Shown in pieces: positions 2 through 53,763 of a stretch of 64,000 bases of DNA. The translations under genes and the position numbers were made by a program. The notes beneath the pieces were generated by a model. The model searched no databases, was not told the DNA's origin, and saw only the letters and a program-made list of their open reading frames with translations. Origin of the DNA: Opitutales bacterium (GTDB lineage Bacteria > Verrucomicrobiota > Verrucomicrobiia > Opitutales > UBA2987). The stretch spans positions 576,001-640,000 of the forward strand of contig CBDDEL010000015.1 in NCBI GenBank assembly GCA_965226885.1. Direction: 5' to 3'. Within the stretch, counting starts at the first letter, position 1. Each line of letters opens with the position of its first letter.

Positions 2-568
2 GTGGCTCGTGAAAAAGGCCATCAGGCCAAAATCGCCTCCGCCCTGGTTGAAGCCTATGCCCTCGAGGAGGAATACGATTGGACGCAGGCCCGCAATACC
101 TTTCTCAGAGTGCTCGATCTGGACAACCAAAACGAGGAGGCGCTCGAAGGGTTGCGGCGCGATGGGGAATACCTGCGCAGTCTGCTCAGGTATGAAAAAT
201 TCCTCACCGACGCCAGCGATTTTGCGGCCAGGGGGGAATTTCAGAAAGCTATCCGGGCTTTTAACGAAGGCATGATATCGAAACTATCCTACCTTACCCT
301 GACCCCCGAATATCAGGATTTAAAAAGCACCTTGAGCGAACAGAGCCAGCCAGTGAGGATTAATTTTGTCTCCGATGGAAAAACCTGGGTGAGCATCGCG
401 GGGTTCCAGATGATCGGAAAATTCGAGCAGCATCACCTGCGTATTTTACCCGGCAATTACCGCGTCCGGGGCCGGCGTAAGGGTTACCGCGATATCGTGC
501 TGGAGGTAAGAATTCGCAATGACAGTAGTTTTGGCGACATTCAGATAATTTGCACCCAAAGGATTTAA
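2..568 (+). CDS. C-terminal part of a TPR-like/PEGA-domain protein (5' end outside window)
   Basis: Open from window edge; helical segments followed by a beta-rich PEGA-like tail (LRILPGNYRVRGRRKGYRD). Confidence 0.55.
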   Translation: MAREKGHQAKIASALVEAYALEEEYDWTQARNTFLRVLDLDNQNEEALEGLRRDGEYLRSLLRYEKFLTDASDFAARGEFQKAIRAFNEGMISKLSYLTLTPEYQDLKSTLSEQSQPVRINFVSDGKTWVSIAGFQMIGKFEQHHLRILPGNYRVRGRRKGYRDIVLEVRIRNDSSFGDIQIICTQRI

Positions 569-696
569 AAACGGGAAAACAAGTATTAGCAGGCGAAATA
601 TCATTGCCGCATCCTCAGCGAACAGCGCCCTTTTTACCGTCATCATTTGAATTTTAAAAAAACGACCCACGCAACAATCTCCAAAGGATAAAGCAA

Positions 697-1587
697 ATGA
701 GCAATTCACGAAAAAACACCCTAAGCAAAGCACTCCCCGCAATCGGCATTGCCTTTAGCGCGTTGATCTGGATGGGCGCTCCGAGCGTGTCGAGGGCGGC
801 CGATCCCGATATATTTGACGGCGATTTGGTAATCCCGGACCCCGTGGTAAAATATGGTCTCAAGAAAATCCTCGAGAATATAAAAATCAAAATGCCGGGC
901 CTACCCCAAATGGGCTCTCAGGGAAGTTCAGGTTCATCAGGAAGTTCAGGCGGCTCCATGGGTTCTTCCGGCGGTTCTGGGGGATTGCCGATGGGATCTT
1001 CCGGTTCCGGTGGCTCGCTCCCATCTTTGGGCAAGAGCGGTCAATCGGGAATTGGGATGCAAGACGGGGACAGCCTCGGCTTGGGCCAGGGAGATAACCA
1101 AGGTTTAGGCCAGAAAAAAGGTGATGGCCAGATGCCGGGCCAAGGCCAGGGTCAAGGCGAAGGGCAGATGGAGGGTCAAGGCGAAGGGCAGATGGAGGGT
1201 CAAGGCGAAGGGCAAATGCCGGGGCAAGGTCAGGGCAATGGTTTGGGCAATAACGGTTCGGAAGGAGGCATGATTGCGCAAGGCGACCAGGCAGGCGAAG
1301 GTCCCATGGGCGAAGGTTCCATGGGTAATGCCGATGCCGCAAATACAAGCGGCGACCAAAAAGGCGGCAGCCAGGGGATGAAAGGCGACAGCATGGGCGG
1401 CCACATAACCATTGGCGACGTTTCCGAAATGATTGAAATGGCCGGCGATCAAGGAGGCGATAGCGATTCAGGCAAAGCAGAAGGTGCCGAATCCGGAACA
1501 GCGAGCAAAGGGCCTCCCATGGCCGGAAAAAACCGTGGACGCGCCTCCGGCGTGGAAAGGGGTGAATCGATTCCTTCGGACCTTTAA
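697..1587 (+). CDS. Secreted Gly/Ser/Gln-rich low-complexity protein
   Basis: 296 aa; signal peptide ending SRA-A; GS/GQ-rich body; non-repetitive ends (DPDIFDG ... GVERGESIPSDL). Confidence 0.75.
   Translation: MSNSRKNTLSKALPAIGIAFSALIWMGAPSVSRAADPDIFDGDLVIPDPVVKYGLKKILENIKIKMPGLPQMGSQGSSGSSGSSGGSMGSSGGSGGLPMGSSGSGGSLPSLGKSGQSGIGMQDGDSLGLGQGDNQGLGQKKGDGQMPGQGQGQGEGQMEGQGEGQMEGQGEGQMPGQGQGNGLGNNGSEGGMIAQGDQAGEGPMGEGSMGNADAANTSGDQKGGSQGMKGDSMGGHITIGDVSEMIEMAGDQGGDSDSGKAEGAESGTASKGPPMAGKNRGRASGVERGESIPSDL
1150..1218 (+). repeat. 24-bp coding tandem repeat (GQGEGQME) x~2.9
   Basis: GGTCAAGGCGAAGGGCAGATGGAG at 1150 and 1174, partial copy at 1198. Confidence 0.9.
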
Positions 1588-42002: not shown

Positions 42003-43031
42003 ATGCAAGCCATTGTAAAAAAAGAAGCGGGACCCGGCCTGGCTCTGAAAAGAGTGCGCATTCCGGAGCCGGGCCATAACGATGTCCTCATCAAAGTGCT
42101 CAAGACTTCCATTTGCGGGACCGATGTGCATATCGACCTGTGGGACGACTGGGCGGCAAAAACGATCAAGGCGCCCATGATTATCGGCCATGAGTTTGTC
42201 GGCCGGGTCCATGCCCTGGGCAAGAACGTGCAGGGTTCTCAAAAAGGGGACCTGGTCACGGGCGAGGGGCATCTTGTCTGCGGGCATTGCCGCAATTGCC
42301 TGGCCGGACGGCGGCATTTGTGCAGTAATACGGTGGGGGTGGGGGTGCATCGCGACGGCGCTTTTGCCGAGTATGTCTGCATACCGGCCACCAATGTCTG
42401 GCATGCCGATCCGGCCATATCCACCGAGGTCATTTCCTGTTTCGACCCTTTGGGCAATGCAGTGCATACGGCGTTGACTTACGATCTGGTGGGGGAAGAT
42501 GTCCTCATAACCGGGGCCGGGCCCATCGGCTGCATGGCGGTGGCCATTGCCAAACACGCGGGGGCCCGCCATGTCGTGGTGACCGACCTCAACCCCTACC
42601 GGCTGGACCTGGCCCGCCAGATGGGCGCTTCCGTAGCCATCGACCCGCGCAGCGAATCATTAAAAGATGTGAAAAAGCTGCTCGATATGAAAGAGGGCTT
42701 CGATTTTGGGTTGGAAATGTCCGGCAGTCCGCAAGCCCTCAGCGAGATGATCGACGTCATGTTCCACGGCGGGAGCATCGCCCTACTGGGTCTGCCCTCC
42801 AAGAACATCACCATCGACTTGAACTCCATCATCTTCAATGGGCTGACCTTAAAAGGCATCTACGGGCGCAAAATGTACGAGACCTGGTATAAAACCACGG
42901 TCATGCTACAGGCCGGTCTCGACATCGAACCAGTGATCACCCACCGCTTCCATTACACCGAATTTCAAAAAGGCTTCGAACTAATGAAAAGCGGCCAATG
43001 CGGAAAAGTCATCCTCGTCTGGTCGAAGTAA
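42003..43031 (+). CDS. tdh: L-threonine 3-dehydrogenase
   Basis: [45 protein letters not shown]. Confidence 0.95.
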
Positions 43032-43043
43032 AAGACACCTTGG

Positions 43044-43943
43044 TCAAAAATTTTCCTGTTCGGCGTAGGCGCAAGTTGCCGGTGTGCCATCCGCCTCTTT
43101 GAATATGGAATAGTATTCCTTGCGGGGAATTACCATGTTATCCGCGCTACGGTAGTGAAATTGAACAGCCCGGCGGCGTTGGGGGGATCGATTGGGCGGT
43201 GTTTCATGAGGCATCATGCTGGAAAAGAAAAGTACGCCGCCGGCCTTTATTTCGATCGGCTTCGCCTGAGAGGGATCGATGCGGCCTTTCATGATCTCGC
43301 AGTCGTAGGTGTGATGGTGCCGTAGGGGGCCAAGCTGGTGCCCTCCAGGAATTACATGCATACAGCCGTTTTCGGCTGTGGCATCGTCCAGGGCTAGCCA
43401 CACACCACAAACCTTTTCAAGTTTTTGAATGGAAAAATAGGCGTTATCCTGATGCCAGGGTTTCTCTGTCCCAATCAGTGGCGGTTTAATCAGCCCCATG
43501 GTTTGGTAGTGCACGGGATTCGAGCCGAGGATGGACCTCACGACCCCTTGCAGCTTGGGGTGGTTTTTCGTGAGATAAATGAAGTGGGGCGTCTCGTTCT
43601 GGAAATTCATGAATTTGCGGACATTCAGCACGAGTTCCTCCAATTTATCGGGATGGGGTTCGTAACCCGCCTCGAGCCAGAACCCGCATTCCCCCCCTTT
43701 TTTATTGAAGCGAGCCCCTGAGTAATTTGTTTTGCGGCCATCGTTCAGCGTCCATTCAGCCAATTCTTCGTTGAAGGCGTATTTGCGGATTATGTTTGAG
43801 ATATCGGCGAGGGCGGCCTCCACCTCATGCCGGGAAAGGGCGTTTTCAAACGCAAGATAACCCTGTTCGTTATACAGTTCCAATTGCCTCAAGGTGAGGG
43901 TTTCGGGGCAATCCTCAAAACGTGAATCTATCGTTTCAGTCAT
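43044..43943 (-). CDS. PhyH-family Fe(II)/2-oxoglutarate dioxygenase
   Basis: KPWHQD, WLALDDATAENGC, PHETPPNRS...RRA. Confidence 0.9.
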   Translation of the reverse strand: MTETIDSRFEDCPETLTLRQLELYNEQGYLAFENALSRHEVEAALADISNIIRKYAFNEELAEWTLNDGRKTNYSGARFNKKGGECGFWLEAGYEPHPDKLEELVLNVRKFMNFQNETPHFIYLTKNHPKLQGVVRSILGSNPVHYQTMGLIKPPLIGTEKPWHQDNAYFSIQKLEKVCGVWLALDDATAENGCMHVIPGGHQLGPLRHHHTYDCEIMKGRIDPSQAKPIEIKAGGVLFFSSMMPHETPPNRSPQRRRAVQFHYRSADNMVIPRKEYYSIFKEADGTPATCAYAEQENF

Positions 43944-44129
43944 GGTAGCGATCTTATCATGTCAACAGCTAAACAGTAAAAAGACACGGGAGGCAAATAT
44001 TTGTTATTTTGTGTTTTTTGCTGTTTTTTTTGAAGTTTAATCAAACGGAGCCAACGGTAGTGTCCTAATTTGGAATGTCTTTTTAACTGGAAATATTCTC
44101 AAATATGTGCAATATTGCATAAAAAGGGG

Positions 44130-44201
44130 TAGTGGAGGTATGGGGACTTGCACCCCAAGCGGTCACAGGTGTAGAGCAGGTCGCCGCACTCTGCTACCCC
44201 C
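44130..44201 (-). ncRNA. Putative tRNA-like RNA (acceptor stem plus T-arm, no anticodon arm)
   Basis: GGGGGTA/TACCTCC 7-bp stem with G3-U70, A73, T-arm TGGGG-TGCAAGT-CCCCA; ends CTA rather than CCA. Expression not shown. Confidence 0.5.
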
Positions 44202-44207
44202 TTTTTG

Positions 44208-45197
44208 TCAGCCTTCTTCAAAGTCCATTGGTATAGTTTCATTGAATTTTGGTGCAGCTATATCTAGTTTTCTCTTGAACTCATCCCAAGAATGACAGGT
44301 TTTCATCAAAAACGTAACATTTGAAATATGTTGTTTCAATTCGGGAACACCGTAATCCTCTGTGAAATGCTGGTGATGTTTTCTCGCACGACCCCCAGAA
44401 GTGGTTCGTGGATTCTTTTTCTTTAATTCGGAAAGGACTTTAGGGGCCATTCTGTTGTAAACTATATCATTTGTCCAGTGGCCCACATATTGGGGTTTTT
44501 GAGTTCCTTCGCCGTCAGGGAAAGATAATTCTTTTAAACGAAAAAGTTCCTTATAAAAACTCGGGTTAAACCGACGAGTCCATTTTGACCATTCATCTTT
44601 AATATATTTATCCAGAATTTTTTGTAAGGCCAATTTGTCTCTGATTTCTTGATAGCCAGTGACCTCATCCACTAACGCAATAATGCCGACCTTTGCTAAG
44701 ACCCGTGTAATTATTTCGCACTGGTCAGCAATCTCTCGCTGTTGTTTATTTAACCCCGGTGAGCGTTTACGTGCTTCAAGAACGGCATCACAAATTCTTG
44801 GCAAGATCGTTGCTTCGTAGGCAACTGCCGGAACCCCTCCACGTCCGGGGCGAATGAATCTTATAGGACGATTTAGCTCCATGGCCAAGTCATTCTCGAT
44901 AAACGGTTTAAGGTATTCTTGAGACAGAAAACCCTTCAATATCGCCCCATGGGATTGTCCAAGCCCTAAAGCTTCTTGCATACCTCTTCCAGACAATACG
45001 CGAGTACCATTATCAAGAACATAGCATTCAAGCTTTTGATTGCCTAAGCTTAATTTATTATCGGCCGCACCCCATTGGGCCCTTGGTAGGCTCCACTTGG
45101 CTTTAGCCGCTTTTGAGGCAATTTCCTTTCTGGTTTTAGCATCGAGCTTTTTCGCCCGTGCTTTACCGCCTTTAGATTGCATAGATTTATCTTCCAT
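44208..45197 (-). CDS. P63C domain protein
   Basis: ALVDEVTGYQEIRDKLALQ, FYKELFRL, GHWTNDIVY, KHHQHFT; basic N-terminus SKGGKARAKKL. Confidence 0.85.
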   Translation of the reverse strand: MEDKSMQSKGGKARAKKLDAKTRKEIASKAAKAKWSLPRAQWGAADNKLSLGNQKLECYVLDNGTRVLSGRGMQEALGLGQSHGAILKGFLSQEYLKPFIENDLAMELNRPIRFIRPGRGGVPAVAYEATILPRICDAVLEARKRSPGLNKQQREIADQCEIITRVLAKVGIIALVDEVTGYQEIRDKLALQKILDKYIKDEWSKWTRRFNPSFYKELFRLKELSFPDGEGTQKPQYVGHWTNDIVYNRMAPKVLSELKKKNPRTTSGGRARKHHQHFTEDYGVPELKQHISNVTFLMKTCHSWDEFKRKLDIAAPKFNETIPMDFEEG

Positions 45198-45259
45198 GCA
45201 TAGAAATAAATATTATTTTATGCTTGCAAGCAAGCTTTTTTTATGAAAATCTTTTATGC
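45198..45259. promoter_or_regulatory. Divergent 62-bp control region with a 12-bp palindrome
   Basis: TGCTTGCAAGCA at 45221-45232; both start codons lie in TATGCATG. Confidence 0.55.
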
Positions 45260-47655
45260 ATGGCAAATAAATTATCTACCTCCAAAAAAGTTCTCGCTGT
45301 TTCTGCCCTTTGCGAAGGCTCCTCCATCCGTTCAATCGAGCGAATGACAGGCATCCACAGGGATACAATCATGCGCCTGGGCGTCCGTATAGGTCAAGGA
45401 TGCGCCGCTATCATGGATGAAAAGATGCGTGACTTGCCATGTAAGGATTTGCAGGTCGATGAGATATGGGGCTTTATTGGAAAGAAGGAAAGGAATGTCT
45501 ATTACGGTGAACTCGGAAAAGGTGATATATGGACATTCATTGCGCTCGACAGTGAAAGTAAGCTAATTCCTTCGTTCCGGGTTGGCCGACGTGATACCGT
45601 GACAGCACAGGCATTTCTTGAAGATTTGGCTTCCCGCATGAAAAACCGTGTCCAGCTTTCCAGCGATGCGCTACGGGCATACAGGGATTGTGTCGAAAAG
45701 GCTTTTGGCTGTGAAGTCGACTACGGGCAGATTGTAAAAATCTTCGCCCAAAGCGATGTTGAAGCACAGCGTAGGTATAGCCCACCCCAAGTCATTTCAG
45801 TTACGCGAAACCCTATTGCTGGCAATCCTGACAAATCCCGAATCTGCACAAGCCATATTGAGAAGCAAAACCATACCTTGCGGATGCACTGCCGCCGATT
45901 GAGCCGTCTGACTAACCCGGATATTTCATGAAGGGTAAAGTTTGGCTCGTTATTGCTATTGGAGATGGATTTCTTTGTATTTTGAGCAGATCGTCTTGAT
46001 TTTTAGGTGTTTTTCAGGGTGTAGAGACACTGCCCCCTTTCCCCCATTGGTTCGGTAGTGCCGGGGGCAGCACCAATGCACCCTTTAGGTTGGCACCAAT
46101 CGGCGGGCCGCATGGTTGAAAAGACTGGCCCAAGGATAACTCTCACTTAGGTGAAAGTGAATCGTTCGGGTGTTGCGCACGATGACCGCTCCGATCTTGA
46201 TTAATTTGAGCCGCAGGGTGTGCCATTGGGCCCGCGCCCACTTCGTCCCTTTTAAGGCTAACCGGCGCATGGCTTCCATCAAGGTGTAGGCCAGCGCCGA
46301 CAAGAGCAATCGCCACTGATTGGCCCACCATTGATGGGCGCTGGTGCGCTCGCTGAACAATTGCATCTGTTCCTTGATTCGGTTCTCCATTTCACCGCGG
46401 CCACAGTATACCTTGTCGTAAAGCTCCTGGGGATCGCCCGGCAGGTTCGTCACCACGAAGCGCGGGTTGGACCCCTGTGCGGTGTGTTCGGCTTTATGGA
46501 TGACCAACCGCAGCCATCGCCACGAATCGGCAGCATAGACGAAGTCCTGGAATAACCGTTGTTTTTTACCCCTTAGTTCGAACCATTCTTTGGCCTGCTT
46601 TTGCAACTGCTGGGCGTCTTGCTGCAAGCGTGCATTGCGAGCCATCCCCACGATGTAACTAACTTCGTTGCGGTCGCACCAAGAGAGTATCCGGTCTCGA
46701 CAAAATCCACTGTCGGCGCGCCAAATAATCCGCGTACGGGGCCAGCTTTGGCGAATCCGTTTAACCAGCAATTTGAGGATGGCCCCGGCATGCTTGCTGG
46801 CATCGATCTTGCTCGGCCGCAGGTAGGCCACCAGCAGCTGATCACCGCAAAAAACATATAGCGGCAGAAAACAGTAATGATCATAATAACCGTGGAGAAA
46901 ACGTCCCTCCTGGAGCCCGTGCACCGGATTGTCGGTGGCGTCAAAGTCCAGGATGATCTCTTCGGGTTCCTCGGCAAAGGAGCCCATGAACTGTTCGACC
47001 AACAGCTCGTTTACCGCAAAGGCCGCCCGCCGATCCTGCCCGTTTTCAAAACGACACAAAGTCGGCGCGCTGGCCAACGTTTCAATGCGCCCCGTTACCG
47101 TTTGCAACAATGGATCGTGGCGCAGGGTATCAAAGTCGTTCAAATCCTCATAGCCCGCCACCAGCCCGTAAACGCGCTGCCGCAGCATCCCCAATACCTC
47201 ATGGCGTACTTTGCCCTTCTGCCGTTTGTCCACTAACTGTCGGGCCGCTCGTTCGGTCAAGCCCAACTGCCGATCCACTTCCCGGATCAAAAGCAGTCCG
47301 GCATCCGAAGTAACCTCTCCGCCCTTGAAATCAACCCGCACACGGCGGCCTTTTACCCTTGTCAACTGTAGCTTTAATTGTTTACCTTTTGTCATCGCTG
47401 ATATTGCTTTAATTATTGATCTATCCTGCTGTATATCAGCAGTTAAGCATATCAACGATACTTTTTTTACGAAATATCCGGGCTAATGCTTTCAGCAAGA
47501 AACTGGAAAATTTCAAGGCGGCTGTGCCCCTCAACTTTGCTTACTACAATTTCGTCAAGATTCACGGCTCTATCCGTTGCACTCCTGCGATGGAAGCAGG
47601 TGTCACGGATTCAATCTGGACAGTCAGCGATCTAGTTGAAATGATTGAGAAGTGA
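45260..47655 (+). pseudogene. Single-ORF IS1-family transposase split by IS1380
   Basis: HTH (EGSSIRSIERMTG), QVDEIWGFI, SSD, TSHIEKQN; rejoined across CTAA it reads RLTNAFSKK, 274 aa. Confidence 0.88.
45916..47482 (-). mobile_element. IS1380-family element (1567 bp; transposase 46085-47395 open)
   Basis: IRs present; TSD CTAA (45912-45915, 47483-47486). Confidence 0.95.
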
Positions 47656-47939
47656 AGGATATTGCAGACTTAGCCGACGCGATCACAGTCATGCACGGCT
47701 GTGATTGTCGCTATATAGGTTCAAAGCTCGTCAAAGAGGTTTTCCAAGGGCAAGTAGCATGGGAAGGCGAAGTCGAGATATTTGACCTTAAAGACCACTC
47801 TAAAACCAATACCTGCTATGCGTGGAGCTACAAAGACAACAAGGGAGAAAATCAATATGTCACTGTTTTACAAATACCGCCTGTAGATTCGGCAGAGACG
47901 GCAGTCAAAGCAGTGATTGCAAATCAGAAATCAACATGA
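47652..47939 (+). CDS. Small hypothetical passenger protein (95 aa)
   Basis: GTGA overlap with the transposase stop; MHGC...WEGEVEIFDL..H...CYAWS. Confidence 0.7.
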   Translation: MKDIADLADAITVMHGCDCRYIGSKLVKEVFQGQVAWEGEVEIFDLKDHSKTNTCYAWSYKDNKGENQYVTVLQIPPVDSAETAVKAVIANQKST

Positions 47940-49651
47940 GTCATTTTAGAATAAATAAGCTTAATATAGAGGCTGTCCCAAAAATATAAAGATTTTATAG
48001 TCAACTGGATGACGTTGATAAAAAGAGCCGGAAAGAGCAAGTTTTTGCTCGATCCGGCCAAAAAAGGGTTCTATAATTGGGTTCTATAATTGAGTTAGCG
48101 AAAATCAATATAGCCCTTTCTATGAAAAATATAGCCATCCAATGCCTCCTGCGTCCAGCTTTAACTGTGGTCGACCGGTGCCTCGATTACGATAACTTCC
48201 GCGCCACCATTGATCGAATCGATCGGTTGCTGATCGACTCGGAGGTGGAATCGCAGGCCATTGAGCTGGCCTTGGAGGGGTGGCCGCCAATGGGTCTAAA
48301 GGCCCGGCGGCAGCGGGCCAGTTTTGCCATCAAGGCACTGCGCATGGATACGCTGGGCCGTCTGCTCGGAGGGATTTCGTTTCGGCATTTGTCGCGGGCT
48401 CTGGGCAGCAGCGATCTGTTGGCCGACTTTTGCCGTGTCCGGCAGATCGATGGCATCAGGGGCATCTCCAAAAGCACCCTGGAGCGGGCCTCGAAGTTTT
48501 TCAGCGAAGAGCAGTTGAGGGCCTTGCACCGGACCTTGACTGAGGTGGTGGGCGATGCCCTTCTGGCCCGGCAGGTGGGATTGGACAAGCCGATTGACAC
48601 CACCATTTGCCTGATCGACGGCACCTGTTTGGAGGCTAACATTCATTGGCCGACGGACTGGGTATTACTCAAGGATGTAGCCGGCACGTTGCTCAAAGCG
48701 ATCCGGCTGATCCGCGAGAAGGCCGGTGTGCGCCATCGCATGCCGATCGAACCGGAGCCCTTGGCTCGGCAGATGAATCGGCTGTGCATACAGATGACCC
48801 ACAGCCGGCGGCGAAAGGACAGCGCGCGGCAGCGCAAGGGTATCTTGAGGCAGATGAAAAAGCTGCTCAAACGGATCGGGGAGCATGCCCGCAGTCACCG
48901 GGAATTATTGCAAGCCTGCTGGGAGCAAAGCGATTACAGCGAAAAACAGGTCCAACAGATCCTCGCCCGGATGGAGCGCATGAGCGAGCAAATCCCGGTG
49001 GTCATCAAACAGGCGCACGAGCGGATCATTGGCGGCCGCCAGGTGAAAAACGCAGAGAAAGTCTTGAGTGTTTACGAACTCGATGTGCAGGTGATTGTGC
49101 GAGGTAAAGCGGGCCAAGAGGTCGAGTTCGGCAACACCCTGTTTTTGGGAGAAAGCGTTGAAGGGTACCTGCTGGACTGGAAACTCTACGGCAGCCGAAC
49201 TCCAAGCGAAAATGAACAAATGCAAGAGAGTTTGCAAAGACAGAACCGCTTCAACCTGGAAGAACCCATAGCGGCCATGTGCGCGGACCGGGGATTTGCC
49301 TCCCAGCGGGCCCGCCGGCAGTTAGCCCAGGAGGGAATCTACGACGCGCTCTGTCCACGCGATCCGAAGCAGTTGAAAAAACGGATGGAGGAACCACTGT
49401 TCAGACAATTGCAAAAGCGCCGGGCCAGCACCGAAGGGCGGATCGGGGTATTGAAGAATTGTAAACGCCGGGATGAAACCGGTACGGGGGTCGGGGTAAA
49501 ACCGGTACGCTTGGAATAAGGTTTAGGTTAGTAATTGCAGGTACGTCAAGGTTTAGCAGGTACGTCAAGGTTTAGGGTTTGGGAGTTGGTTTTGGGGATT
49601 GGCTTGGGGTCGGTGAGGAGGCCGGAGGCCGACGAGCCGGGCCCAAGGCGT

Positions 49652-50362
49652 TTATTGTTTTGTGCCACGGCGACGGCGTCGAGCATCGCGCAAGCGGTAG
49701 CTTTGCCCGTTGGCTTCGAGGATATGCACCCGATGGGTGAGTCGGTCCAGCAGAGCTCCGGTGAGCCGTTCGGAACCGAGCACTTCGATCCAGTTCTCAA
49801 AGGGCAGGTTGGTGGTGACGATGAGACTGGTGCGCTCGTAAGCGCGGCTGACCACGTCGAAGAGCAGTTCGGAACCGGTCTTGGAAAAAGGGACGTAACC
49901 GAGTTCGTCGAGGATGAGTAGGTCGAGCCTTTCGAGTTGCTTCATGAAGCGCTGCAGGTCGTGGTTGTCGCGTTGCTCGAGCATATGGGTAACCAGGGCG
50001 GTGACCAGGTGCGTTTTACCGGTACCGGCGTTACCGAGGAGCAGCACGTTTTCGCGCTGGTCGACATACTCCCCGCGCATGAGCTCTCGGATGAGCGCTT
50101 CGTTGATCGAGGGCTGCGCTTCAAAGGCGAAGCTCTCGAGGGTCTTGAGCACGGGGAAACGGGCGTTTTTGATCCGCCGCTGGGCGGCCCGCTGTTCGCG
50201 TTCAATGAGCTCCCGTTCGACCAGATGCAACAAAAAGGCGGCGTAATCGAGCCGGTCCCGGGAACAAGCCGCGGCCACCGCCGGCCATTCGCGCAGGATG
50301 GTGGGCAACTTCAGTTTCTTGAGGTGATGGTGTAACAGCAGCTGGTTTTTTTCTTCCTTCAT
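49652..50362 (-). pseudogene. istB: IstB ATPase with probable in-frame deletion
   Basis: GNAGTGKTHL, LILDELGY, ALLDRLTH; the segment normally after Walker A appears missing. Confidence 0.7.
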
Positions 50363-51864
50363 AAAGCCCCTCCTGGAATCTTGAGCAGTTCGCTGTAGGC
50401 ACCGAGGTCAGGGGCGGCCACACGGACGTGACGCAGGTGTGGATGGCCGTCCAGCCGGAAGGTTCTGCTCCCGTAGTCTTCCTGAGGATAGAGATACTGG
50501 GCGATGGCCTCACGAGTCAGTCCCCCCACCCGCAGGGCCGAGACGACGGCCTGCTGCAAGGCCGCCATGGGGTGTTTCTCCAACAGCCGCAGCACCCGGA
50601 TATACTCCCGGGTGCCTTCGCCCCCGCATTGGCTTTCGAGCCGGCGTCTGAGGACCTGCAGGCACTGCGGCAACTGCCAGCCCGAGAGTGGGCGGGCGAA
50701 GTCCAAAGCGCCCGGTTTTTTCTCCAGCAAAGCCAGGTAGTGCACCGGCTCGAAAGAGACTTGCTCTTTATCCCAAATGCGGCGGTGCCGGGCCACCTCT
50801 TGGCCCCCACAGAAGATCACCACCTGCCGACAGGACCCTTCCACCACCACCGGATGGTGGGCGCAGCGCACCGGCACCGAATAGTCGTTGCACTCGAAGC
50901 GCACCAGCGAGAGGCTGCTGACGCAGGTCGAGCGTTTGCGGCTCGCTTCAAAGGGTATGGGCGGCAACGCCAGCATGACGGCGCGCTCCTCGGCCAGCAG
51001 TTCCTTTTTCACCGCCCTTTTCCCGCGTAATTTACGCTCCATGTCCCGCTCACATGCCTCCAACAGCTTTGCGTTGAGTTCCTCCAGGTCCCGAACCTGC
51101 GGTACCGGTACCAGGAAGTTGGCCCGGGCATAACGCACGATCCCCTCGACCACGCCCTTCTCGTTGGGCCGGGCGGGCAGACAGAAGTGTTCCTCGAACA
51201 GGTAATGGCTCTGTAGCTGCAGAAACCCGTCGGTCAGCTTGCGTTCACGCGAACCGATAATCTTACCCACCGCCACCTTCGAGTTGTCATAGCTGATGCG
51301 CCGGGGCACCGCCCCGAAAAACTCAAAAGCTCGCAGGTGCCCCTCCCAGAAGCTCTCCGTGCACTCCCGTTCGAACACCTGCACGAAAAAGGCATCGCTG
51401 TAGGGCAGGCTCATGGCAAAAAATGGCCGCCTACGCAATTGCCCCGCCTCCTTCACCAGGGCATGACCGAAGTCCACCTGTCCCTCCCCGGGGCGGTGCT
51501 CCAGCGGCACGAACACTTCCCGCCGCCTCGCTCGCAGCTCGGCCACCACCTCCTTGACCGCCGTGTAGCCCCCTTGGTAGCCCTTCTCCCGACCCAAACG
51601 CTGGTAGATCCGTTTGGCCGTATGGCGCTGCTTCTTGGGCACGTTCCGGTCCGCTTTGAGCACCTCCTCGATCCAGCCCACATACGGATCGATCTTGCGC
51701 TCTCGCCTCTTCTTGCGCCGGTATCCCGGCGGCTGGGAATAGGCCAGCATCTTTCCCAGGGTCTCCCAGTGCAGTCCCTCTTCTCGCATTACAGAGCGCT
51801 TGCTCTGCTTGTCCCGCAGCACTTTGTGCCGCACTCTTGTCCATTGCTTCATATCTCGATACAC
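50359..51864 (-). CDS. istA: IS21 transposase
   Basis: KQRHTAKRIY, GQVDFG, YDN, EKGVVEG, NDYSVP. Confidence 0.95.
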   Translation of the reverse strand: MYRDMKQWTRVRHKVLRDKQSKRSVMREEGLHWETLGKMLAYSQPPGYRRKKRRERKIDPYVGWIEEVLKADRNVPKKQRHTAKRIYQRLGREKGYQGGYTAVKEVVAELRARRREVFVPLEHRPGEGQVDFGHALVKEAGQLRRRPFFAMSLPYSDAFFVQVFERECTESFWEGHLRAFEFFGAVPRRISYDNSKVAVGKIIGSRERKLTDGFLQLQSHYLFEEHFCLPARPNEKGVVEGIVRYARANFLVPVPQVRDLEELNAKLLEACERDMERKLRGKRAVKKELLAEERAVMLALPPIPFEASRKRSTCVSSLSLVRFECNDYSVPVRCAHHPVVVEGSCRQVVIFCGGQEVARHRRIWDKEQVSFEPVHYLALLEKKPGALDFARPLSGWQLPQCLQVLRRRLESQCGGEGTREYIRVLRLLEKHPMAALQQAVVSALRVGGLTREAIAQYLYPQEDYGSRTFRLDGHPHLRHVRVAAPDLGAYSELLKIPGGAL

Positions 51865-52578
51865 TCCTCCTTTCTAGGATAAGCGTACCGGTTTTAAAGC
51901 GCCCTCTTTACCGTACCGGTTTTTCCCCGGCGTTTACAAAGAATCGCTGGCAGGCCGGGCGGTTGCGCAGCAAAGGCTTTGCCAACCGCTCGATCAGCGT
52001 AGCCTGGTCGGTACTCTCGCACAACCTATGGAAAGTAGCCAAGATGCTGGCCCAGCAAGACGAACTAAAAACCAAAGCGGCGGCCTAGAGAGCGGAAAAG
52101 CAAGGACAATACTTTTTCACAGCCTTACTGTCGGCTCATACAAAGAAAACCAGGCAACCGGACCCCAAAACCAGTATCCTAACGTCATAGGAGAGCAAAG
52201 TTGATACTCTCCCAAATGCAAATACCTCTAAAATGAGCGCCTATCAAAAGCCCTCGCAAAAATCACCCTTTTGGGACAGCCTCTAATATAGCCCCTCAAG
52301 GATTTAAGAAAGTATATGAGGTGAGAATAGAGGTAGCTCAATCCACATCTGACGAAGACGGCGACAGAATTTTTCTAGGGGCACCGTGTATCGGACCGAA
52401 AGAACTTGAATACTGGAAAAATCAATTGATTAGTCAGATTAAGAAACTTCGTTTCCCAAATTAGGACACTACCGAGCCAACCTATCGATTGACGGTTTTG
52501 GGGTTTTGTGATATCATGCATCACTTTTAGCGATCTGGTTATGCGAAACGAAACGAATTTATTTAGGGAGTGAATTTT

Positions 52579-53763
52579 ATGAAAAAGGCATTTAAGGAAT
52601 ATTTGGTGGAGGAGCTTCGGGGAATCGAGGCGGCGGGGCTTTTTAAGCGGGAGCGTTTTATTACGAGTCCGCAAAAGGCCCGCATCCAGGTGGGCGATGG
52701 GCAGGAGGCGCTTAATCTTTGCGCCAATAATTATTTGGGCCTGGCGGACCACCCGGAGGTGTTGGCAGCGGCCCGCGAGAGCCTGGATAAGCGCGGCTAC
52801 GGGATGGCTTCGGTGCGGTTTATTTGCGGAACCCAGGATATTCACAAGGAATTGGAGGCCAGGATTACCGCTTTTCTGGGGACCGAGGACACTATTCTCT
52901 ATCCTTCCTGTTTCGATGCCAATGGCGGGCTTTTTGAAACGCTTTTGAACGGGGAGGACGCCGTTGTCAGCGACGCCCTCAACCATGCTTCGATTATCGA
53001 TGGCATACGCCTTTGCAAGGCCGCCCGTTACCGTTACGGCAACAACGATATGGCCGACCTGGAAGCCAGATTGGGGGAAGCCCAGAGCCAGCGGTTCCGG
53101 CTCATCGCCACCGATGGGGTTTTTTCCATGGACGGCACCATCGCCAATTTGCAGGTCGTCTGCGAGTTGGCCGACAAATACGATGCCCTGGTTATGATCG
53201 ACGATTGTCACGCGGCCGGTTTCCTTGGCCCCAATGGCCGAGGCACTCATGAATATTGCGGCGTTATGGGGCGGATCGACATTATTACGGGCACCTTGGG
53301 GAAAGCCCTGGGCGGGGCCAGCGGCGGCTACACCAGTGGCCGGAAGGAAATCATCGAAATCCTGCGGCAGCGTTCCCGGCCGTATCTTTTTTCAAACTCG
53401 GTGGCCCCGCCCATTGTGGCGGCCTCAATCAAGGTTTTTGAACTGCTGGAGACATCTTCCGATCTACGGGAAAGGCTCATGGAGAACACCCGCTTTTTTC
53501 GCCGGGGGCTGACGGATTCGGGTTTCGTGATCAAACCGGGCGATCACCCGATCGTGCCAATTATGCTGGGGGAAGCCGCCCTGGCCCAGAAGTTTGCGGC
53601 CCGAATGCTGGAAAAGGGCGTTTATGTGGTCGGTTTCTTTTTTCCCGTCGTGCCCGAGGGGACGGCCCGCATCCGCATCCAATTGTCCGCCGCCCACAGT
53701 CGTCAGGACCTTGAGTTTGCCCTGGAGCAATTCGCTCAAACCAAGAGTGAGTTCGGGCTTTAG
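52579..53763 (+). CDS. kbl: Glycine C-acetyltransferase (2-amino-3-ketobutyrate CoA ligase)
   Basis: [42 protein letters not shown]. Confidence 0.95.

Follow-up and report, generated by a model that had tools for sequence, protein, structure and literature searches.

Insertion sequences (IS) of the IS1 family include a subgroup of the ISMhu11 type, the 'transporter IS' of Siguier and Chandler, which encodes its transposase in a single open reading frame (ORF) and carries passenger genes inside its terminal inverted repeats, at lengths of up to several kilobases. Tn7-like transposons with defence cargo have reportedly been described as well, by Benler et al. in mBio in 2021. The element described here is an IS1-family element, interrupted by three later ISs, in the genome of an Opitutales bacterium (assembly GCA_965226885.1, contig CBDDEL010000015.1). 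It lies in a 64-kb stretch of that contig; this whole stretch is called the window, and all coordinates are on its numbering. With a probability of roughly 0.7, the element is a single inactivated copy from a large clade of single-ORF IS1-family 'transporter' ISs of Verrucomicrobiota and Acidobacteriota, a clade with a swappable slot. Passenger-carrying IS1 elements are already known, and the present copy is dead and ordinary. The literature searched yielded no paper on ISMhu11 by name, no description of a 95-aa partner gene and tRNA-like RNA in IS1-type elements, and, for transporter IS or IS1 with defence cargo, nothing on the present clade. The part of PMC13323075 that was available treats insertion sequences only as gene interrupters.

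Structure of the element and its target site

The element is bounded by two 18-bp terminal inverted repeats (left, IRL, and right, IRR) that are perfect reverse complements of each other, and the 8-bp target-site duplication (TSD) GAGCCAAC stands beside each. With up to 3 mismatches allowed, the 18-mer occurs at these 2 sites only in the window, against 0.01 expected from shuffles. In-silico excision of the three later ISs, each with one copy of its duplication, leaves an element of 2525 bp. It encodes a P63C-domain protein of 329 aa on the minus strand and, on the plus strand, a transposase of 274 aa followed by ORFs of 95 and 68 aa; the last is called ORF68. The overlaps that couple the plus-strand genes are read directly in the sequence, GTGA at 47652-47655 and ATGA at 47936-47939. 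An independent check of the rebuild is provided by a 28,887-bp contig of a sister assembly, on which a 68-aa protein is encoded that equals the rebuilt ORF68 exactly. The IS21-family element is supported by other copies, in which a joint 49453 to 51939 is present. The element is present in one copy in its own genome.

The first-pass annotation had described the perfect repeats with their exact duplication, the excisions leaving 2525 bp with the named genes and their overlaps, and a passenger-carrying, single-ORF IS1-family element within inverted repeats. The repeats and duplication are borne out by the reverse-complement match and by their unique occurrence in the window, the excisions by the unbroken ORF68 of the sister assembly, and the family assignment by the comparisons reported below. 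It had also placed the expected empty site between phyH and kbl. A single copy of the TSD is indeed found upstream of the kbl orthologue in the congeneric genome G003, where the site reads ...AAACG GAGCCAAC GTATCAATTGACGG..., and in genome G004, where one CAGCCAAC stands in matching surroundings upstream of the kbl orthologue. The adjacency of phyH and kbl at the empty site did not follow: the two genes are on different contigs in G003, and G004 gave no phyH match.

The target region (44006-44055 and 52474-52530) is a promoter-like sequence of about 100 nt, with TTGACG and TATCAT separated by 17 nt. It is repeated upstream of several genes in the host genome (G000), G003 and G004, and the site is uninterrupted in the paralogous copies.

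Contigs of 4 public sequencing runs were aligned to 44000-52600. The left flank through P63C is spanned by contigs of X1, X2 and X4 (three runs, three studies), and those of X1 and X2 extend 22 nt into the IS1380-type insert. Among the 4 runs no contig bridged any nested element of the window copy, and the intact-transposase form was not seen. Coverage in the single RNA run extended little beyond the nested IS copies and is uninformative on expression. The features of the element are collected in Table 1.

Table 1. Features of the interrupted IS1-family element, in order along the window
Feature	Position	Strand	Remark
Left TSD copy, 8 bp, GAGCCAAC	44048..44055	.	found once at the empty sites of G003 and G004
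Left terminal inverted repeat (IRL), GGTAGTGTCCTAATTTGG	44056..44073	+	elements of relatives end in the same sequence
tRNA-like RNA	44133..44201	-	alignment to relatives; covariance model 43 bits, window copy in training set
P63C-domain protein gene, 329 aa (324 aa from second ATG), intact	44208..45197	-	Pfam PF10546
Operator-like palindrome TGCTTGCAAGCA	45221..45232	.	between the divergent P63C and transposase starts
Transposase gene, 5' piece	45260..45915	+	218 codons and 2 bases, with D67, D136 and E201
Duplication CTAA of the IS1380-family element	45912-45915 and 47483-47486
IS1380-family element, 1567 bp	45916..47482	-	inside the transposase gene; its own transposase 46085-47455 (-)
Transposase gene, 3' piece	47487..47655	+	last base of codon 219, 55 codons and stop
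95-aa backbone gene	47652..47939	+	GTG start overlaps the transposase stop
ORF68, first 11 codons	47936..47968	+	ATGA overlap with the 95-aa gene
Duplication TAATATA of the ISNCY/IS5-like element	47962-47968 and 52284-52290
ISNCY/IS5-like element	47969..52283	+	inside ORF68, split by IS21; duplication TAATATA
IS21-family element	49460..51938	-	within the ISNCY-like element; istA 50359-51864, istB 49652-50362
ORF68, last 57 codons	52291..52464	+	TAG stop inside the right inverted repeat
Right terminal inverted repeat (IRR)	52456..52473	-	exact reverse complement of IRL
Right TSD copy, GAGCCAAC	52474..52481	.	TTGACG hexamer upstream of kbl starts 7 bp later

After the element had inserted, an IS1380-type element cut its transposase gene and an ISNCY-like element cut ORF68; IS21 then hit the ISNCY-like element. 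All three types are repeated in the host genome: the IS1380 type has no fewer than 45 full-length copies, IS21 about 40 and the ISNCY type about 10. This genome has undergone massive IS expansion; its IS1380-type copies are near-identical, and several of its ISs are nested in one another.

Transposase and relationship to IS1

Removal of the IS1380 insert restores one unbroken frame of 274 codons, and the two-ORF insA/insB' frameshift arrangement of classical IS1 is absent. The transposases of relatives are likewise single ORFs, of 269-279 aa. The best family of the transposase is IS1 (NF033558, 5e-19), the runner-up being IS1595 (2e-5). A word search returned 7853 relatives, mostly of 274-279 aa, many of them named IS1 family transposase and carrying PF03400; intact relatives clear the PF03400 cut-off of 24.1 bits, with 35.2 in L076, 34.0 in L071 and 31.5 in L029. 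The residues D67, D136 and E201 are invariant in all 34 aligned transposases. Both ends of the element begin with GGTAGTG, as do those of relatives, and the end consensus of the IS1 family is GGnnnTG. The TSD is 8 bp long here and 8-9 bp in relatives.

The family and its cargo

Relatives were surveyed in one genome per species. This gave 148 transposase relatives, of which the best 80 (L003-L082; 53-74% identity) were kept; they come mostly from Verrucomicrobiota and Acidobacteriota. The end sequence GGTAGTGTCCTAATTTG is conserved among them, and in 62 of the 80 a left and a right copy are accompanied by an exact 8- or 9-bp duplication. These 62 bounded elements are 2017-6486 bp long; among intact relatives, the L004-type element has 2310 bp and the L012-type element 2154 bp. 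None consists of a bare transposase gene: every one has extra DNA, chiefly between the left end and the transposase gene. A second copy of the inverted repeat is found near the first, or the end of a neighbouring element abuts, in L015 (2328, 2371), L034 (5214, 6331) and L061 (2692, 2701), and these doubled copies suggest tandem or nested insertions of the same family.

The first-pass annotation was right in its excisions and in seeing a single-ORF passenger-carrying IS1 element; its further claim of one self-contained cargo module, made up of P63C, both small ORFs and the RNA, is not supported by their co-occurrence. A homologue of the 95-aa gene is found in 80/80 relatives, the RNA in 37/80, P63C in 6/80 and ORF68 in none. 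A recurrent further component of the family is a small ribbon-helix-helix-like gene (GRPK...VRL...W.R), for example in L012 (3723-3911, minus strand), L059 (3733-3921, minus strand) and L017 (5111-5296, plus strand). Verrucomicrobial elements have this gene on the upstream side of the transposase gene and divergent from it; in acidobacterial elements it follows the 95-aa gene.

The 62 bounded elements contain 162 non-core ORFs of at least 70 aa, and 129 of these were scanned after ORFs antisense to the core and the shortest ORFs had been dropped. Most scanned ORFs have no family at all. The recognisable cargo is nearly all defence or toxin-antitoxin, and such genes are present in 12 of the 62 elements. 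They comprise GmrSD (L011, L027, L039), PIN (L015, L028), the Eco29kI and SmaI restriction enzymes with their methylases (L015, L061), RmrA-like M78 peptidase with a helix-turn-helix protein or DUF4411 (L059, L037), SocA/Panacea (L016), Zeta (L033, L074) and MazF (L076). PADLOC matched 10 of 99 submitted cargo ORFs at E 1e-5 or better. Families of metabolism or drug resistance were not found among the 129 scanned ORFs.

The family is little described, although its members number thousands in Verrucomicrobiota and Acidobacteria from soil and fresh water. It is a compact natural vehicle for the exchange of defence genes in phyla with few genetic tools. Its core is in three parts, the transposase, the 95-aa partner and, in about half of the clade, an alanine-identity tRNA-like RNA.

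The P63C gene

The P63C protein matches PF10546 with 100.2 bits (cut-off 26.1) and phrog_2384 over its full length (5e-107). A word search found 3979 relatives, among them 64 phage records with 37-48% identity. In phage 933W the P63C gene (ST933Wp35) is part of the nin region, where a methylase gene and roi flank it, and not of the immunity region; in phage Lodos the gene is near the integrase gene.

In the 6 relatives of the family that carry P63C, this gene and the transposase gene always diverge, and each of these elements is flanked by a duplication of its own, at a different target. The seven rows with P63C (the window copy and the 6) require 7 changes on the transposase tree, at least 4 of them forced by well-supported branches. 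The transposase of L062, which carries P63C, is near-identical to those of L059 and L061, both with restriction-type cargo. Because P63C is scattered in this way over the transposase tree, it is regarded as a swapped module.

The space between the divergent starts contains an operator-like repeat. Of 49 metagenome loci, 22 have TGCTTGC/GCAAGCA no more than 160 nt upstream of P63C, 15 of them in at least 2 copies, against a background of 0.056 per 165 nt; some of these loci are without a transposase gene. All seven elements have kept the repeat in the gap that separates P63C from the start of the transposase gene, the window form being the palindrome TGCTTGCAAGCA. In the predicted structure (predicted local distance difference test, pLDDT, 83) an N-domain of residues 42-180 has DNA-binding domains as its best matches by two methods. 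The first is the DdrC N-domain (Z 6.4, root-mean-square deviation 4.0, 95 aligned residues; top Foldseek row, probability 0.8, E 0.04), and the next are a Dachshund/Ski domain and the Swi6 APSES domain. A sequence search of the PDB with P63C returned 0 matches. Since P63C occupies the place of the ribbon-helix-helix gene, a regulator of the divergent promoters is favoured. As far as comparison of the loci can tell, P63C with its candidate operator is a self-contained module that enters and leaves the present IS backbone.

A somewhat unlikely alternative, and the one with most in its favour, takes P63C, in line with the first-pass annotation, for a passenger of benefit to the host or an addiction passenger: a phage-derived gene for exclusion or defence, or one member of an addiction pair, spread by the transposon and without a part in control of the element. 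The defence and toxin-antitoxin character of the recognisable cargo speaks for it, as do the elements in which such genes lie beside P63C itself (Zeta in L033, a PIN and Phd pair in L102) and the presence of P63C proteins in accessory regions of temperate phages (the 933W nin region and, in Lodos, the neighbourhood of the integrase gene). This guilt by association is weak because most cargo ORFs are unannotated. P63C has no meaningful match in PADLOC (best E 0.009, 13.4 bits), and the transposase, the 95-aa ORF and ORF68 have none in the same 2023 library. No catalytic or toxin-like domain is seen in the P63C model, and no family of toxins or antitoxins was found in any ORF of the window element; relatives do carry such pairs. 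A conserved partner gene is also absent, since minimal elements such as L004 consist of the RNA, P63C, the transposase gene and the 95-aa gene only. The position of P63C and the operator-like repeats fit a DNA-binding regulator at least as well as a defence or addiction gene. In either case the uncharacterised phage P63C family is now found in a small, testable setting with a candidate operator.

The 95-aa gene and ORF68

The presence of the 95-aa gene in all 80 relatives assigns it to the backbone and not to the cargo. It abuts or overlaps the transposase stop in 72 of the 80, lies 0.3-0.6 kb downstream in 7 and elsewhere in 1. Among 40 sequences the protein has a mean column identity of 50%, with W37, G39 and A84 invariant. 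Its predicted fold is a helix, a four-stranded sheet and a helix (pLDDT 94.8). No family was found for it in Pfam, NCBIfam, PHROG or PADLOC, a profile search of the PDB gave a best E of 0.34, and the protein atlas returned only unnamed clusters. Prediction of a complex with the transposase, that of L003, scored 0.46 (runs 0.46, 0.09 and 0.50; best control 0.01) and lends weak support to binding; contact agreement was at least 52% and the pLDDT of the partner at least 76. Of 80 solved complexes, 58 reach the mark applied to such predictions, as do 2 of 110 mismatched pairs. The 95-aa protein is probably an accessory factor or inhibitor that binds the transposase. The protein of the sister assembly, encoded on the same 28,887-bp contig as the unbroken ORF68, differs at one residue, H15Y (window codon 15, 47694-47696), and His15 is kept in at least 90% of the 40 homologues. 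On the metagenome contig L104 a 95-aa homologue (45-359, minus strand) stands head to head with P63C (440-1444, plus strand), with no transposase gene between them.

ORF68 ends 9 nt from the end of the element in a TAG stop that the right inverted repeat supplies. A tblastn search with its C-terminal part found it at none of 80 genome loci and at none of 66 metagenome loci, the sole database match being its own unbroken form. Relatives have unrelated small ORFs in its place, several of them hydrophobic and many ending in the same TAG. In 21 relatives the small ORFs after the 95-aa gene aligned neither to ORF68 nor to each other, apart from an acidobacterial group of ribbon-helix-helix genes and from the C-terminal residues, whose codons lie in the inverted repeat. 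We infer that ORF68, a putative gene, is an orphan filler of a second, right-hand variable slot.

The tRNA-like RNA

The RNA of the window has the acceptor stem GGGGGUA/UACCUCC with G3:U70 and a discriminator A, the T arm UGGGG-UGCAAGU-CCCCA and the loop CUCUACA, which is CUUUACA in most copies. It is without a proper D arm; the consensus of relatives has acceptor, D and T arms. Compensatory changes are found in 12 of 14 predicted pairs, and of the 21 aligned copies 18 keep G3:U70. The irregular anticodon arm has 3-4 clean pairs, one mismatch and a C at position 37, and the RNA is not a canonical tRNA with a full cloverleaf, a 5-bp anticodon stem, a 7-nt loop and detection by a tRNA finder. 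ARAGORN predicted 0 genes in the whole window, and Rfam gave 0 matches at E up to 1 in 43000-53500. Although neither calls it, the tRNA-like sequence pointed out by the first-pass annotation is real and is recognised by alignment to relatives.

A covariance model trained on 21 copies, that of the window among them, places the RNA inside the element in the 37 relatives counted above, 17 of them outside the training set and most of them without P63C. The same model also matched seven ordinary tRNA genes outside elements. The usual position of the RNA is on the transposase strand, about 270-350 nt upstream of the transposase gene, with the 62-aa ribbon-helix-helix-like gene on the opposite strand between them. 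In the seven P63C elements it is inverted, on the same strand as P63C, and starts 1-11 nt past the P63C stop; the copies of L044, L045 and L062 were not used in training. Of 46 metagenome P63C loci whose sequence extends at least 150 nt beyond the gene, only 3 have the RNA behind it, all 3 with IS-type ends or a transposase gene. As the RNA is rare behind P63C in the metagenome loci and present in many elements without P63C, it belongs to the transposon and not to P63C. A 102-nt version in L005 (1958-2059) combines G3:U70 with a D arm of normal appearance and contains a long insert; at the GTA column described below, L005 has TAC. Ordinary tRNA genes lie within a few hundred bases of L024, L063, L067 and L070, with a run of four at L070.

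Since the RNA adjoins the P63C stop in 7 of 7 P63C elements, it might be a mere transcript-end or processing signal that ends the P63C mRNA and keeps outside transcription from reading into the element. Runs of AAAAA and UUUUU flank it, each strand forms a long outer stem (-39 and -46 kcal/mol), and across the family the RNA is found in either orientation relative to the transposase gene. This reading is improbable. The fold energies improve only modestly on those of shuffles (z -1.6 and -2.2), a simple terminator scan did not list the stretch, and a plain terminator would not keep the T arm, G3:U70, the A discriminator and an invariant UACA loop in 21 diverged copies.

A further reading takes the RNA for a functional decoder or suppressor that accepts alanine and controls whether genes of its own element are translated. 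It has the conserved structure on its side, with covarying pairs, G3:U70 and discriminator A. The loop can be read as an anticodon, UUA in most copies and CUA in the window, or UAC one base over, readings that are mutually exclusive. One column of the transposase gene (Val159, window 45731-45733, before the invariant Lys160) has the rare codon GTA in 40 of 77 genes, and these 40 are among only 138 GTA codons in the 77 genes together; the codon is present there in 30 of 34 RNA-bearing elements and in 10 of the 43 others. The transposase gene stops at TAA or TAG in 23 of 36 RNA-bearing elements; of 43 that lack the RNA, 6 have these stops and 37 have TGA. A kinship-aware test of the link between RNA and GTA had 4 independent pairs only and gave no significant trend (median p 1), so that the links with GTA and with the stop codon may be inheritance alone. 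Read-through of the transposase stop was considered and rejected: the tails are 0-67 codons long and not conserved. CCA is not encoded in most copies, and the silence of ARAGORN and Rfam, the irregular anticodon arm and the missing D arm of the window copy also count against a working decoder, which is quite improbable. An extended form is highly doubtful. In it, the backbone of this IS1 clade would carry an alanine-identity tRNA-like RNA that is charged and gates transposase translation, a private translational switch paired with the fixed 95-aa partner, as the rare GUA at codon 159 and the TAA stops of RNA-bearing elements might signal.

Allo-tRNAs of soil bacteria with G3:U70 and the wild-type anticodon UUA, near toxin-antitoxin and transposon-related genes, are described by Mukai et al. 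(2017; PMC5389517) in the part of that paper available. As reported there, they are charged with alanine in Escherichia coli after a change of the anticodon, and the authors suggest that some are regulatory and not translational. In the literature searched they are the nearest parallel to the RNA, and their G3:U70, UUA, alanine charging and similar neighbourhood speak for a decoder (available part of PMC5389517). The present family may explain odd tRNAs of soil bacteria that lie beside toxin-antitoxin and transposon genes.

Proposed mode of action and weight of the evidence

The reading of the locus as an inactivated copy from a clade of single-ORF 'transporter' ISs can be set out as a course of events. 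A DDE transposase recognises ends of the GGTAGTGTCCTAATTTG type and cuts the target with an 8-bp stagger; in this case the element inserted 15 bp ahead of TTGACG, the likely -35 hexamer of kbl. The backbone consists of the inverted repeats and two translationally coupled genes, for the transposase and the 95-aa protein, with the tRNA-like RNA added in about half of the clade. The slot between the left end and the transposase gene has its content exchanged among near-identical backbones. Where P63C occupies the slot, its winged-helix-like DNA-binding N-domain, as modelled, may bind its own TGCTTGC operator and thereby control how strongly P63C and the transposase are expressed.

Several results weigh against this account. 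The broken transposase piece falls under the curated cut-offs, with 23.0 against 24.1 bits for Pfam PF03400 and 68.9 against 100 for NCBIfam NF033558. The transposase tree is a quick tree, and the careful search is unfinished. An IS1-like transposase is absent from 29 of 36 metagenome P63C loci with at least 1 kb upstream and present in 7; P63C, occurring outside such elements, therefore did not originate as a dedicated regulator of transposons. Its structural matches are weak, with Z below 8, low template-modelling scores and none at Foldseek E 0.001. The defence or toxin genes that 12 of 62 relatives carry in the same element favour a defence passenger. The 95-aa fold has no clear match (best Z 6.1 in the wide search, to a TraM fragment; no Foldseek row at E 0.001), and passing complex scores of 0.60 or less were obtained by only 7 of the 80 solved complexes and by both of the mismatched pairs that passed.

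Comparison with known systems

The RNA of the present family shares with the allo-tRNAs of Mukai et al. (soil Acidobacteria; Nucleic Acids Res 45:2776, PMC5389517, available part) the G3:U70 alanine identity, the UUA-type anticodon and neighbours of toxin-antitoxin and transposon-related kind. It differs in its stems, which are of the 8/4 or 9/3 type there and a 7-bp acceptor with a 5-bp T stem in the 21 copies aligned here, in its irregular anticodon arm and, in the window copy, in the missing D arm. The P63C protein is homologous over its full length to those of phages (933W ST933Wp35; PHROG 2384); unlike the phage genes, the gene here is inside an IS, divergent from the transposase gene and with the element's tRNA-like RNA behind it. 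Tn7-like transposons with defence cargo are alike in idea, a fixed transposition core with a variable, defence-rich load. Their machinery is unrelated, and the element here is far smaller and has no target-selection module. The ISMhu11 type resembles it, by general description, in a single-ORF IS1-like transposase, passengers within the inverted repeats and a length of up to several kilobases. With classical IS1 (IS1A of enterobacteria) the element shares a DDE transposase of the IS1 profile, GGTAGTG ends that fit GGnnnTG and a TSD of 8-9 bp. It differs from classical IS1 in having one long ORF instead of insA and insB' joined by a -1 frameshift, and in the length of the family's elements, 2.0-6.5 kb against 0.77 kb; to the classical plan the present family adds a fixed 95-aa gene, a tRNA-like RNA and a cargo slot.

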